Below, piece after piece: positions 2,876 to 63,162 of a stretch of DNA of 64,000 nucleotides. Source of the DNA: Eledone cirrhosa (lineage: Eukaryota). Every line of letters begins with the position of its first letter. The first letter of the stretch is position 1. Location: assembly GCA_964016885.1 (NCBI GenBank), contig OZ024757.1:39494001-39558000 (forward strand). Direction: 5' to 3'. Under the pieces are notes generated by a model. That model was not told the origin of the DNA and did not search any database. It saw nothing but the letters and a program-made list of their open reading frames with translations. The position numbers and the translations under genes are program-made.

Positions 2876-3385
2876 TAAAAACAAATAACGAAACGAAATT
2901 AAATTTCGTTTCGTTTGTAACTCACTTTTGTATGACTGACGCTTAAACAATTAAGTTAAAAATGTACATCCACATATGTATACTGAAATACTAGTATGCA
3001 TATGAATACACACACGTATACATATGTAGATGTACCGAGTTTTTCACTGGTCACTTTACTGTGAGTGTCCAGCTATTCTGTATGTAAACACACAGACAAA
3101 CCGGTTTTTAGAGTCATACTCGTTTTTGAGGAAACACCTTTCCTCTATTCTCCAGAAAGCCAGACAAGGAATATTGAACTAGTTTCGATGTTGTTACATC
3201 TCATCAGCAATATTTACCTATCTTCCGGCCTTTCTAGAGAATCGTAAAAGCACATATCGTTATATGCTTTTTCTATGAAAATTAGTAGTGGGCAGACTAA
3301 TTTGCATAGAGCGTGAGTACGTACCGGTTCAACGGAGACGATAAAAACAAATAACGAAACGAAATTAAATTTCGTTTCGTTTGTA
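2876..3385 (-). mobile_element. Hammerhead-containing retrozyme-like element, 466 bp monomer + ~45 bp terminal direct repeat
   Basis: ACAAATAACGAAACGAAATTAAATTTCGTTTCGTTTGTAA occurs at 2881 and 3347. Flanked by (TA)n, with an internal hammerhead. Second copy at 42670. Confidence 0.8.
3170..3214 (-). ncRNA. Minimal type I hammerhead ribozyme
   Basis: Minus strand reads AATATTG-CTGATGA-GATG TAACAA CATC-GAAA-CTAG-TT-CAATATT: 7 bp helix I, 4 bp stem II, palindromic helix III, GUU site. Confidence 0.85.
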
Positions 3386-5331: not shown

Positions 5332-5403
<72 letters not shown>

Positions 5404-5451
5404 AGACGTAAAATAAGAAAATTATAAAATTAACTTACTTACTAAAATATC

Positions 5452-5536
5452 ACTTCCAACTAATTAGTTTCTGGAATGGAGTAAATATATTTTCCGAAGA
5501 ATAATATACAGAGAAGCATTCCGTCGTCAGGAAAGT
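5452..5536 (-). ncRNA. Type I hammerhead ribozyme with extended stem II
   Basis: Minus strand reads ACTTTC-CTGACGA-CGGAATG...CATTCCA-GAAA-CTAATTAG-TT-GGAAGT. Confidence 0.75.
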
Positions 5537-6222
5537 CTATTCTCATGTAAGTTTCCAGGCAAAGCGAGGACACTGGAAACTTATTAAAAAAATAATTCAG
5601 TGGATAGGAAATAGCGAAGCGTGGACTGAATTCCAAGCCATTGAGAAAATCACTGCCTCTACGTCTGTGGAAAATTCAAAAAGAATCGAACACGTGACAT
5701 CGAGGTTAATCAGTGGAAAGTGGTTTGCTAATAAGACAGCGGCCTGCCTACAACCGTAGCAGCAGTCATGGCCAATATTGCTCGACAAATAATTTGGAGA
5801 TAATAATAAATAATTCATATCTAGTAACATATATATACAGATGCATATCAATGCTAGCAAATATATAGGTTTTGTCTTAATAACAGTGTGGTTCAATGCA
5901 TGGGGTTGCAGAACAATAATATAAGAGACGTAAAATAAGAAAATTATAAAATTAACTTACTTACTAAAATATCACTTCCAACTAATTAGTTTCTGGAATG
6001 GACGGTTGTAGGCAGGCCGCTGTCTTATTAGCAAACCTATTTCCACTGATTGACCTCGATGTCACGTGTTCGATTCTTTTTGAATTTGCCACAGACGTAG
6101 AGGCAGTGATTTTCTCAATGGCTTGGAATTCAGTCCACGCTTCGCTATTTCCTATCCACTGAATTATTTTTTTAATAAGTTTCCAGTGTCCTCGCTTTGC
6201 CTGGAAACTTACATGAGAATAG

Positions 6223-6307
6223 ACTTTCCTGACGACGGAATGCTTCTCTGTATATTATTCTTCGGAAAATATATTTACTCCATTCCAGAAATTAATTAGT
6301 TGGAAGT
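6223..6307 (+). ncRNA. Type I hammerhead ribozyme (second copy)
   Basis: Same as 5452-5536 with one substitution in helix III. Confidence 0.7.
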
Positions 6308-6476
6308 GATATTTTAGTAAGTAAGTTAATTTTATAATTTTCTTATTTTACGTCTCTTATATTATTGTTCTGCAACCCCATGCATTGAACCACACTGTTA
6401 TTAAGACAAAACCTATATATTTGCTAGCATTGATATGAATCTGTATGTATATATATGTTACTAGATATGAATTCTT

Positions 6477-12785: not shown

Positions 12786-12901
<116 letters not shown>

Positions 12902-13071
12902 ATTTCATATATATATATGTGTGTGTGTGTGGTGTATGTATGTATCTATATATGTATGTATATTTCTATGTATTTATGTACATATGTACTTATATATGTA
13001 TGTGTGCGTATGTATGCCCGAATGTATGTATGTATGTATATATATATGTATGCTTGCGTACGTATAATATA

Positions 13072-13455
13072 TATATCAATAATATTAATGAATGGAAACT
13101 ATATTTATGAAACCATATTTATTCTATTATATATATTTCAAGAGTACCAAAACTTTGGTACGCACTCATCAGATAAAATACAAAGTTTGTTTTATAAATA
13201 GTGACATACCCAGGAATCAAACCTTAGAAGTTCAAGGTATGTCACTATTTATAAAACAAACTTTGTACTTTATCTGATGAGGGCGTACCAAAGTGTTGGT
13301 ACCCTTGAAATATATATAATAGAATAAATATGGTTTTATAAATATAGTTTCCATTTATTAATATCATTGATATTATACTCCAGAAAACATGTCGAGTGCT
13401 TCGTATCTGTTATAAGTATATTTGTTGAATTACCAACAAATTAAATATCCCTTTG

Positions 13456-13458
<3 letters not shown>
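13072..13458 (+). mobile_element. Fold-back hammerhead element (arms ~13074-13210 / 13236-13372, plus tail)
   Basis: ~135 bp inverted arms with a few substitutions; 3' tail; (TA)n flanks. Confidence 0.85.
13269..13323 (+). ncRNA. Minimal type I hammerhead ribozyme (inverted copy at 13123-13177)
   Basis: TTTAT-CTGATGA-GGGCGTACCA AAGTGT TGGTACCCTT-GAAA-TATATA-TA-ATAGA; AUA site. Confidence 0.75.
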
Positions 13459-13527
<69 letters not shown>

Positions 13528-13574
13528 CATATATATATATATACATATATATACACAACATATATATATACACA

Positions 13575-13629
<55 letters not shown>

Positions 13630-17737: not shown

Positions 17738-20090
<2,353 letters not shown>

Positions 20091-20391: not shown

Positions 20392-20518
20392 GTAATTAAA
20401 GTTTTGTGTATATATATATATGTGAGTCTTTCTCTCCCTATATATTTGTGTTTCTTTGTATGGGTGTATGTATAATATATATACATATATGTGTCTATAT
20501 AATATATATATATATATA

Positions 20519-21284
<766 letters not shown>

Positions 21285-25918: not shown

Positions 25919-25970
<52 letters not shown>

Positions 25971-25976
<6 letters not shown>

Positions 25977-26520
25977 TAAAAAAATAATGAATAAAACAAT
26001 GAAACAGTTCCTTATATTAAACAAAAAAAGTTCATTATTTAACGATCGTTTCTAGGATATATATGTGTTAGAATTGGCATGCATATTCAACAGATCTATG
26101 TACAAAATTATACAAGATTATACAAACTATCAAATTTAATATACATACCAACACATATATATGCCGTCTTCAGAAATAATTTCTGAAGACGGCATATGTA
26201 TGTGTTGGTATGTATATTTAATTTTGATAGTTTGTATAATTTTGTATAATTTTGTACATAGATCTGTTGAATATGCATGCCAATTCTAACACATATATAT
26301 CCTAGAAACGATCGTTAAATAATGAACTTTTTTTGTTTAATATAAGGAACTGTTTCATTGTTTTATTCATTATTTTTTTAATAATTTATCTTGACTCTGT
26401 ATTCCGTTTATCTTTCACCGAAAGTGATATTTCATTGCATCTCTTCTTTCCATGATATCCGGATTACATTGAGTTCTTCATACGGATTGGACACTACCGT
26501 AAACTCTTGGTAGATTTATC

Positions 26521-57364: not shown

Positions 57365-57682
57365 GGGCGGTGGATTGGCAGTATCGGTAGAGGGTCAGAG
57401 GCCATGCTTTTCAGCAAAGAGTTACGGCCCTTTATGATCTGAGTTCAAATCCCGCCGAGGTTTAACTTTGCCTTTCATCCTTACGGGGTCGATAAAATAA
57501 AGTACCAGTAATGCACTGGTTAATTGCTGGCCTTGTGCCTAAAGTAGAAACAATTATTATTATCATTATTCAAATCCCGCCGAGGTTAACTTTGCCTTTC
57601 ATCCTTACGGGGTCGATAAAATAAAGTACCAGTAATACAGTGGGATAATTGGTGGCCTTGTGCCAAAAGTAGAAACAATTAT
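57365..57682 (+). mobile_element. Full-length plus truncated SINE in tandem
   Basis: GGGCGGTGGATTGGCAGTATCGGTAGAG...GAGTTCAAATCCCGCCGAGG...CCTTTCATCCTTACGGGGTCGATAAAATAAAGTACC; the central part resembles the Meta-SINE-type domain. Confidence 0.9.
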
Positions 57683-58324: not shown

Positions 58325-59365
58325 CATTTGTTTGTTAAACTATTCAAATTAAACTAATTCAACAGTTAAACACACATAGGAGTAATAGGGTCGTTACCAA
58401 AGAGCCAGAAGATTAACAAGTCGACCCTAAATATGACTAATAGCTCTAGGAAAGCCATGAACGAAACCATATATTTTAAAATTTGATAGGTTTATAATTA
58501 TTAATTTTCATTATACTTTTATAGCTGTCTCAGCGGCCTAGTTGGTAGAATCCTAGACTGTGCTGTTGTTCGATCCTAGTCGGGAGTAGGGCTCCCGGTA
58601 AACCTTTTCAGTTTTTTTTTTCTATGAAATTTAAAATAAAAACTGAAAAATTCTACATGTTCCTCTCGACCAGGATTGAACCTAAGACCAAGAACTCCAC
58701 AGTATCTAGTATCTACCACCAGACTACTGAGACAACTACAAAACTCTATTAGAAATTCATACTTATAAACCTACTTTCAAAATTGTCAAAACAAAATGAT
58801 GCTTTGTCGTTCATGTCTTTGGGTGTTCCATAAACTACATCCTAGTTTTTTTTTTCTCATCTATCTAGACTATATTTTAACTTGCAGTCAATGTTACATT
58901 TCTGTTGCACCATCTTATTAACTTTGGTTTTGAAAGTAGGTTTATAATAATTAATTTTAATTATACTTTTGTAGCTGTCTCGGTCGCGTAGTTGGAGGAG
59001 TGATAGACGGTGGTGATGCTGGTCTGAAGTTCGATCCTGGTCGGGAGTAGGGCTCGAGGTAAACATTTTCAGTTTTTTTTTTCTATGGAATGTAAAATAA
59101 AAACTGAAAAATTGTACATGTTCCTCTCGATCAGGATTGAACCCAAGACCAGGATCTCCACCGTCTGTACTGAAACTGATGCTTATAAACCTCCTTTCAA
59201 AATGTTCAATACAAAATCATGTGGTGTCGTTCATGTCTTTCTTAATGTTATTGCTCCTATTTAGGGTCGACTTCTAAATCATTTGGGTGTTCCATAAAAT
59301 ACATCCTCGTTTTGTTTCTCATCTATCTTGACTATATTTCAATATTTCAACCTGTAATCCATATT
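58325..59365. mobile_element. Two partial tandem copies of the 200-815 repeat, inverted relative to it
   Basis: For example GTTACCAAAGAGCCAGAAGATTAACAAGTCGACCCTAAATATGA is the reverse complement of ~709-752. Confidence 0.8.
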
Positions 59366-61836: not shown

Positions 61837-62193
61837 ATACTTTGGGAGTATATATGTATATATATAGAGAGAGATAGAGAGATAGATAGATACAAGTATA
61901 CACATACATTCATACGCATACAGAGAGAGAGAGAGGGGGGAGAGGGAGTGACAGAGAGCGGGAGAGCGAGGGATGTATATATATATCGGCTAGAAAGTAG
62001 ATTCAATAGATTATACGATTTATTAATGTGTTGGTAGCTTCCAAATTTTGCTTATTTTCTTTCATAGTTACACAATAAAACCGAACTATTGAAATAAATG
62101 TTTCTTTGGCAGTGTAGTTTAAACTCAACAATATCTATAAAATATCGGAACATATGAAAATGTCACAAAATACCCATGAGTGTGCTGGTGTGA

Positions 62194-62243
<50 letters not shown>

Positions 62244-62269
62244 TCACACCAATTCCGATGGAATTACTT

Positions 62270-62374: not shown

Positions 62375-62429
<55 letters not shown>

Positions 62430-62431
62430 GG

Positions 62432-62478
<47 letters not shown>

Positions 62479-62483
<5 letters not shown>

Positions 62484-63087
62484 GGAATAGAATGAAACGA
62501 AATTTCATTTCTCACTCTTAGTACGGCACTTACTTAAATGTAAGTATATATGTATACGTACATACATATATGTATACAGACGTACAGTAGTATGTATATA
62601 TATACATATATGCACACATATATATATGCACGTACTGTGCCGTAAGTAAGTGCCGTATTAAGAGTGAGAAATGAAATTTCGTTTCATTCTATTCCATTTA
62701 CCGTTTTCGGTATGCCCGGCCGACTGAACTCACTCGATATGCAAATTAGGCTGCTCACCCGTTAATATGCATAAGGAAAGTATACACTTTCAGACGTTCA
62801 ACCATCTGGCAGGAAGGTATACGATTCTGACGATAGCTAATAAGCTTGAAACTAGTAGATCGTTCCTGTGTCAGTGTTGAACAAAAAGGTGACGTGGTTG
62901 CCTAAACACTGTACGGCGTAATTCGGGCTGTTTGTTTGTTTACAAACAAACAAACCGAGCATTATAATAAATGTTCGGTAAAACCGATACGTGCATATAT
63001 ATATGTGTGAATGTATATATATATATATATATACATACTACTGTACGTCTGTATACATATATGTATGTACGTATACATACATACATA

Positions 63088-63092
<5 letters not shown>
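62479..63092 (+). mobile_element. Retrozyme-like element, ~450 bp monomer with an inverted arm spanning the end-to-start junction
   Basis: The reverse complement of 62479-62634 equals 62988-63091 followed by 62643-62700. Confidence 0.85.
62821..62863 (+). ncRNA. Minimal type I hammerhead ribozyme
   Basis: ACGATT-CTGACGA-T AGC TAATAA GCT T-GAAA-CTAG-TA-GATCGT; GUA site. Confidence 0.8.

Positions 63093-63162
<70 letters not shown>

Follow-up and report, generated by a model that had tools for sequence, protein, structure and literature searches.

At 62,427-63,160 of the window (the whole 64,000-nt stretch of Eledone cirrhosa DNA that was analyzed) lies a copy of a ~446-nt (450-base) non-coding repeat with a hammerhead-like motif, a repeat that the genome contains in thousands of copies; the arms of this one are set back-to-back in a TA microsatellite. 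With a probability of roughly 0.6, the two-arm copy was laid down in (TA)n by a Penelope-like RT/GIY-YIG protein acting in trans, with priming at two sites, and with a circle as the template for some insertions of the family and an uncut linear multimer for others. Entry of animal retrozymes into the genome by way of a circle and a Penelope enzyme has so far been proposed, not demonstrated.

Organization of the two-armed locus

Between (TA)n runs lie two arms with their 5' ends facing each other, the short one at 62634-62479 (minus strand) and the long one at 62643-63091 (plus strand), with the following features.

62427..62436, minus strand: 10-nt extra copy of the outer end of the tail, 43 nt beyond the arm and past (TA)n
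62437..62478, no strand: (TA)n target, left flank (from the sequence)
62479..62536, minus strand: tail, unit positions 1-58, at the outer end of the short arm; a recurrent family end, 57/58 to 62643-62700, and putative priming site 1
62537..62540, minus strand: CATT, the last bases of the unit, which the sense arm lacks at its end; found ahead of almost all unit starts in loci L002-L030
62540..62634, minus strand: 3' part of the unit (positions ~345-442), the short 5'-truncated arm (from alignment and segmentation)
62635..62642, no strand: 8-nt filler at the head-to-head inversion point (from sequence and segmentation)
62643..63091, plus strand: long arm, a nearly full-length unit whose outer end is the second recurrent family end and putative priming site 2
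62821..62863, plus strand: type I hammerhead-like motif (from the consensus core; predicted cut after 62857)
62923..62980, plus strand: two adjacent hairpins within the unit (fold of 62915-62990, z = -5.1)
63092..63160, no strand: (TA)n target, right flank (from the sequence)

Read on the minus strand, the short arm passes from the last ~95 nt of the unit through CATT into the unit's first 58 nt, just as an earlier sequence-only reading had described it: 62634-62540 aligns with the end of the sense unit (62988-63088) at 90% over 101 columns, the mismatches being simple-repeat lengths, and 62536-62479 is identical to the unit start (62643-62700) at 57 of 58 positions. Unit positions 1-58 are present twice, once in the long sense arm and once as the outermost part of the short arm; taken together, the two arms start at position 1 and reach position 58 of the following unit, a total of 504 nt with one ribozyme site. 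An alignment of the short arm with the natural head-to-tail join in locus L016 spans 158 columns and contains 2 substitutions along with two gaps of 2 bases; the long arm matches its closest genomic copies at 97-98%.

The flanks are long (TA)n runs, in keeping with an inversion that arose by DNA fold-back or as an assembly artefact in AT-rich sequence. However, each arm has content that is missing from the other, the CATT-tail join in the short arm and positions 59-344 in the long arm, so neither can have been folded back from the other. The layout is moreover common to 63 of 91 loci (see below), and opposite-strand joints within this unit are also present in the contigs of two public runs, leaving fold-back or artefact hardly credible as an explanation.

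The filler, the recurrence of both outer ends and the link to Penelope-like insertion all lie beyond what the sequence-only reading had covered. At the inversion point, GTGCCGTA at 62637-62644 is a repeat of 62650-62657, which would have arisen by slippage. No target-site duplication is readable in the (TA)n flanks, and the locus has no RT/GIY-YIG ORF and no long ORF of complex sequence. The tail-end piece at 62427-62436 is possibly a false start with TA addition. A 9-nt tail-end motif is found in 3 of 91 flanks, and only that at 62427-62436 sits in pure (TA)n; with a count of 3/91, two of them probably chance, the idea that the family habitually makes repeated false starts at its tail end was rejected. 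Repeated short pieces are also seen ahead of the partner-arm ends in L044, L072, and L086. At 62187-62252, 230 nt to the left of the element, a 12-bp inverted repeat encloses a (TA)n run, and beyond it come a small hairpin and a second run of (TA)n.

The hammerhead-like motif

The motif lies in the middle of the unit and not at an end, as the sequence-only reading had noted: the core begins at 62827 and the predicted cut falls after 62857, position 215 of 449. It was identified by its consensus core, and 261 copies were gathered at up to 5 mismatches. It is composed of a 6-bp stem I (62821-62826/62858-62863), a CUGACGA...GAAA...GUA core, a 4-bp stem II with a U-U at its base, and a palindromic ACUAGU stem III, and it conforms to the type I core with a 6-bp helix I, a 4-bp helix II, and a short palindromic helix III that is defined in PMC4209133. 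The ACUAGU palindrome (duplex, -4.8 kcal/mol) fits the dimeric hammerhead form described in the same paper.

The core is intact in 216 of the 261 copies, and variants at stem I pair 3 mostly keep pairing (A-U, 189; G-U, 45; U-G, 11). The pair that closes stem I is G-C in 242/261 copies and U-G in the window copy, where both bases of this cut-adjacent pair (62826 and 62858) are changed, a G-C to U-G replacement present in 1/261 copies. The U-U at the base of stem II replaces the G10.1-C11.1 pair in 256/261 copies; the trait concerned is common to hammerheads and lies outside the retrozyme definition. This pair is termed highly conserved in hammerheads (PMC4209133), and because it is missing the predicted ribozyme may cut poorly. 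An Rfam scan returned no hammerhead match at the gathering score or up to E=10, and the only matches, to microRNAs, stayed below threshold and came from AT-rich and inverted stretches. Folded from cut to cut, the monomer has paired (closed) ends, with a z of -7.4. Contig pieces from four public runs stop at 62857 and were considered as products of cleavage; this was rejected, as ends and strand cannot be read from these contigs and the stops are explained by the private base of the window copy at 62858.

Several other structures are present elsewhere in the window. Two copies of another hammerhead-like motif, at 13172 (minus strand) and 13274 (plus strand), lie back-to-back within an inverted repeat (12830-13626), and nearly the same motif is found in L221, 1.8 kb behind a GIY-YIG ORF. 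A third hammerhead-like motif at 3207 (minus strand) has the same ACUAGU palindrome and a different stem II, and 3288-3318 is a weak match to unit positions ~86-116. Near-perfect inverted structures (97-98%) at 19623-20089, 25968-26389, 5397-6362, and 20515-21068 are possibly other two-armed insertions. The segments 58487-59240 and 57462-57643 contain a degenerate direct repeat of ~450-460 nt (82-88%) together with a 58-nt repeat pair, the latter presumably a SINE end.

A repeat family with tandem and solo copies

A search of the genome itself gave 2,848 candidates, and among the 40 that were scored, full-length matches are 96-98% identical and several are in tandem at a spacing of 426-448 nt. 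A 31-nt hammerhead string has 10,046 exact matches in the genome, a count that takes in related 420-430-nt units, and the tail end joined to (TA)n has 1,361; the reversed controls give 0 each, so chance occurrence of motif and tail is excluded. Units are 442-452 nt long and form arrays of 3-6 units. No published account of this family or of two-armed retrozyme insertions was found; the supplements of PMC7229834 and of the 2026 preprint (bioRxiv 10.64898/2026.07.22.740005) may list such families.

The join of unit end, CATT, and unit start had been taken as a footprint of RNA circularity, an interpretation that is not supported. Because CATT precedes nearly every unit start in L002-L030, and the join is contained in genomic tandem DNA arrays, it is ordinary interior sequence of the family and no RNA ligation point. 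It is crossed by 85 of 91 tail arms. The flagged join alone adds nothing on the route of entry; the statistics of the family do.

Two recurrent outer ends and scattered inner ends

Ninety-one insertions were segmented on both strands against one natural monomer treated as a circle; these are the window copy and 90 others, drawn from the 1,361 tail places in the order in which they fall on contig C1, with one duplicate place skipped. All 90 comparison loci are from this single contig and were picked by the tail, which makes the tail end constant by choice; it also recurs in L002-L030, which were chosen independently. A credible inverted partner arm is present at 63/91 loci, and its end falls at positions 428-446 or 1-3 in 50 of the 63, at the tail end in one (L110), and elsewhere in 12. 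The family has two recurrent insertion ends ~60 nt apart, with a tail on one end only, save in L110, the 1 of 63 in which both arms are tailed. The inner (5') ends are scattered all round the unit. Breakpoints mapped on the circular monomer, as the sequence-only reading had suggested, hence include two recurrent outer ends, spread 5' ends, and no excess at the cut site.

Target-primed reverse transcription leaves this kind of pattern, in which 3' ends are fixed and 5' ends vary. The sense unit then 'ends' at a putative priming site and 'starts' where the 5' breakpoint of the window copy fell; 5' breakpoints are spread all round the unit. Mean arm lengths are 329 and 371 nt and the longest arms are 1,659 and 1,652 nt, up to 3.7 units; a single linear master with a 58-nt terminal repeat, the kind of template that the sequence-only reading had named as the alternative to its own, cannot explain arms of up to 1,659 nt. 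Arm lengths are consistent with a constant stop rate (KS p 0.18 and 0.42), and the position of the second site is independent of the length of the first arm (Spearman -0.06, p 0.62).

Test of cut monomers as template

A cut linear monomer would limit the arms to 289 and 231 nt and would pile up 5' ends at position 216. These limits are exceeded by more than 10 nt in 41/91 and 36/63 arms, and stops within 5 nt of the predicted cut number 3 in 101 passes, with 1-7 per 62-139 passes in other intervals. The template is an uncut multimer or a circle: with arms as long as 3.7 units and no pile-up of 5' ends at the predicted cut, the ribozyme-cut linear monomer is excluded. Seamless tandems would likewise result if the enzyme jumped end to end at the cut site between ribozyme-cut linear monomers. 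Against such jumping, 5' ends are not in excess at the cut (3/101), subfamily types are unshuffled between units, and in copies such as L057 and L107, which have C at position 8 of the inner unit and G at that of the tail, the short hairpin downstream of the cut is still of the C type, which places the change elsewhere than at the cut; template jumping is accordingly a very improbable source of the tandems.

Uniformity within insertions

Comparison of 13 polymorphic subfamily columns, in which pairs are not independent, gave mismatches of 18/302 within the same arm, 21/316 between opposite arms, and 20,429/59,139 between different insertions, with a background of 3.2-4.0%; 18 of 43 informative loci have at least one mismatch at these columns. 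All three units of L061 have private variants in common, and so do the two arms in each of L037, L041, L074, L077, and L097. Private variants are mostly unshared (26/219 shared in the same arm and 16/241 in opposite arms), as expected after insertion. The common subfamily and private variants within an insertion favor a monomer (one-unit) bottleneck. Homogeneity within an arm is no proof of a circle because uniform arrays can arise in DNA, as in the duplication in L231, and agreement between opposite arms needs one RNA molecule only.

Two arrays with alternating units differ in organization. In L231 (5418-8097; G000:C3:84866000-84875999), an old array with C at position 8, the middle four units alternate and the ribozyme core is broken in every second one; this alternation is read as a later two-unit duplication at the DNA level. 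An origin of L231 from a dimeric circle was rejected, since the middle alone alternates and its repeats are much closer than the other units. In L233 (3053-4768; G000:C1:19312000-19319000), an array of a 420/422-nt subfamily, two unit types alternate from end to end with 14-16 differences between types and 0-4 within, and a stem I mismatch recurs in alternate ribozymes; either duplication in DNA or a dimeric circle would produce this arrangement.

Circles, linear multimers, and the polarity at position 8

Position 8 of the unit is C in one subfamily, and neighbors of C8 and G8 units were counted on 30 plus 40 loci from 76 exact matches, together with the earlier loci (L043, L121, L122, and L124 were left out as duplicates and L171 was replaced by L231). 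An internal C8 unit is followed by a same-arm tail with G in 12, C in 21, and A in 1 of 34 cases, by an internal G8 unit in 0/10, and by a G8 tail on the opposite arm in 3/21. From an internal G8 unit to a C8 tail, the counts are 0/20 in the same arm and 1/28 in the opposite arm (1/48 in total). The same-arm tail mismatch (12/34 with C8 inside versus 0/20 in reverse; Fisher p 0.002) far exceeds the 3-4% background.

If a monomeric ~446-nt circle were the template of every insertion and were read by rolling-circle reverse transcription, then the lack of a stop at the cut site, arms of up to 3.7 units, and the constant stop rate would all follow, and the star-like divergence among units of the arrays L028, L072, and L078 and the private variants held in common would fit; circles have also been demonstrated for mussel retrozymes (PMC7229834). 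However, one monomer circle has a single position 8, and a circle for all copies therefore fails on the one-way mismatch between C8 units and G8 tails, unless the G8 tails derive from another circle that serves as template only when synthesis begins. L233, which alternates two unit types, also speaks against a circle in every case, and we consider this explanation unlikely. The template of the sequence-only reading, a ~450-nt circle or head-to-tail multimer, stands insofar as it was more than one unit long or circular (arms reach 1,659 nt) and is contradicted at position 8 as regards a circle alone.

The simplest reading of the polarity is that C8 would have arisen in an inner unit of a source locus with a G tail, which was then copied as uncut linear RNA. 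In the copies with the older base at position 84 (L139, L148, and L198), all tails are non-C. The polarity, seen at one column only, could also come from an early switch between two RNAs, out of abundant G8 RNA.

In a further explanation, genomic tandem arrays are read through into linear transcripts, which stay uncut and give rise to all insertions; the ribozyme is idle or acts in a different step, and the arrays are homogenized in DNA. This explanation draws on the existence of arrays of 3-6 units, the C8/G8 polarity, the DNA-level duplication in L231, the non-canonical base of stem II, and the report that insertion in vitro is unaffected by ribozyme mutants (PMC11167929). With mean arms of 329 and 371 nt, however, linear copying alone shortens arrays, and several subfamilies each have arrays that are uniform for all markers, all-C8 arrays included, for which a one-unit bottleneck is needed. 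Conservation of the core in 216/261 copies and of pairing in most stem I variants likewise argues against an idle ribozyme, and linear templates throughout seem rather unlikely, if a little less so than circles throughout.

Templates were probably mixed across insertions, with a circle for some and uncut linear RNA for others. Provided that both primers act on a single molecule, the window copy needs no more than a 504-nt uncut unit-plus-tail RNA, or a circle, and cannot discriminate between them; its join therefore shows redundancy, not circularity. We tentatively suggest, at somewhat short of even odds, that the family spreads by two templates, linear unit-plus-tail mosaics (a new C8 inside and an old G8 tail) and ribozyme-made circles that homogenize arrays, and that a Penelope protein primes both arms at two fixed sites on one RNA.

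Proposed mechanism and candidate helpers

In the mechanism favored here, the unit would be transcribed, a dimer would self-cleave, and the RNA would circularize. The circle would close at the predicted ribozyme cut, 215 nt from the join, and would leave no mark. A Penelope-like RT/GIY-YIG protein, acting in trans, would cut the AT-rich (TA)n target, and DNA synthesis would be primed from both nicks at two RNA sites ~60 nt apart, with a circle as the template RNA in some insertions and, in others, a linear multimer that had not been cut. The two cDNAs would then be joined at their far ends, giving head-to-head arms.

The insertions have several features of a non-autonomous Penelope-like element, with 5' truncation, partial tandems, an inverted 5' copy, and a one-sided tail between two start sites. 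The same genome contains 10,597 GIY-YIG candidates, and six candidate ORFs that were scanned include three with RT and GIY-YIG, two with RT only, and one with GIY-YIG only. Coding Penelope-like copies at L216 789-4537 and L226 2460-5725 are back-to-back palindromes of 3.3-3.7 kb with 97-100% identity. In L226, one arm abuts TA directly and the other continues for ~45 nt. No coding element with the tail or ribozyme of the unit, and no pLTR with its sequence, was found in 40 of the 10,597 GIY-YIG candidate loci, among which L221 and L222 have separate retrozyme copies only. The helper is accordingly a putative one, with a Penelope-like RT/GIY-YIG protein as the candidate.

For a lizard Penelope-like element in vitro, two RT start sites inside the RNA define a one-sided tail, both strands are cut and extended in AT-rich DNA, and uncut RNA is the main template of the protein (PMC11167929). 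The inverted 5' copy, the tail, and the (TA)n bias of Penelope-like elements have been described (PMC8557442, PMC3846280), and a proposal of 2014 has Penelope-type tandems copied from circular templates. Arkhipova 2013 (PMC3846280) explained head-to-head joints by self-priming on an antisense template; for the Eledone family two primings fit better, because the arms differ in content.

Comparison with known systems

In twin priming of L1, a 5' inversion comes from a second primer on the other strand, at a variable site that coincides with the stopping point of the first cDNA. The Eledone insertions share the 5' inversion; in contrast, their second site is recurrent and unrelated to first-arm length. 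Plant LTR retrozymes (PMC4918200), as described in PMC7229834 and the 2026 preprint, are likewise ribozyme-bearing non-autonomous retroelements for which circular RNA is proposed, but they carry a type III hammerhead in direct LTRs, PBS/PPT, and 4-bp duplications, none of which are present in the Eledone unit, where the motif is of type I and mid-unit and the terminal repeats are inverted.

Endonuclease-bearing Penelope-like elements (PMC8557442, PMC3846280, PMC11167929) are alike in their 5'-truncated partial tandems, the head-to-head inverted 5' copy, the extension at one end, the AT-rich or (TA)n targets, and the two RT start sites inside the RNA. They differ in that the Eledone unit has no ORF and its tail is ~60 nt instead of 30-40. 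As an ORF-free substrate of 450 nt, the unit is suited to an in vitro Penelope assay.

Metazoan non-LTR retrozymes (PMC7229834; bioRxiv 10.64898/2026.07.22.740005) have a non-coding, low-G+C unit of 150-450 bp with a type I hammerhead motif in each, thousands of tandem and solo copies, a strongly self-paired monomer, and Penelope-like elements alongside, all of which the Eledone family resembles. Circular RNA and cleavage have been shown for them and are predicted for the Eledone family; stem II of the Eledone unit begins with a U-U; and neither back-to-back arms nor two fixed ends are described in the available text of PMC7229834 or of the preprint. In the Eledone family, the fixed ends at two sites, the markers of the subfamilies, and a motif present in more than 10,000 copies allow circular and linear routes to be counted from sequence, and if the two-template reading is true, the rolling-circle step is a countable fraction, with about one-third linear among same-arm pairs of the C8 subfamily. 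Judged by its sequence, the element behaves as a non-autonomous Penelope-like element and has the sequence features of the metazoan non-LTR retrozymes reported in PMC7229834 and in the preprint.
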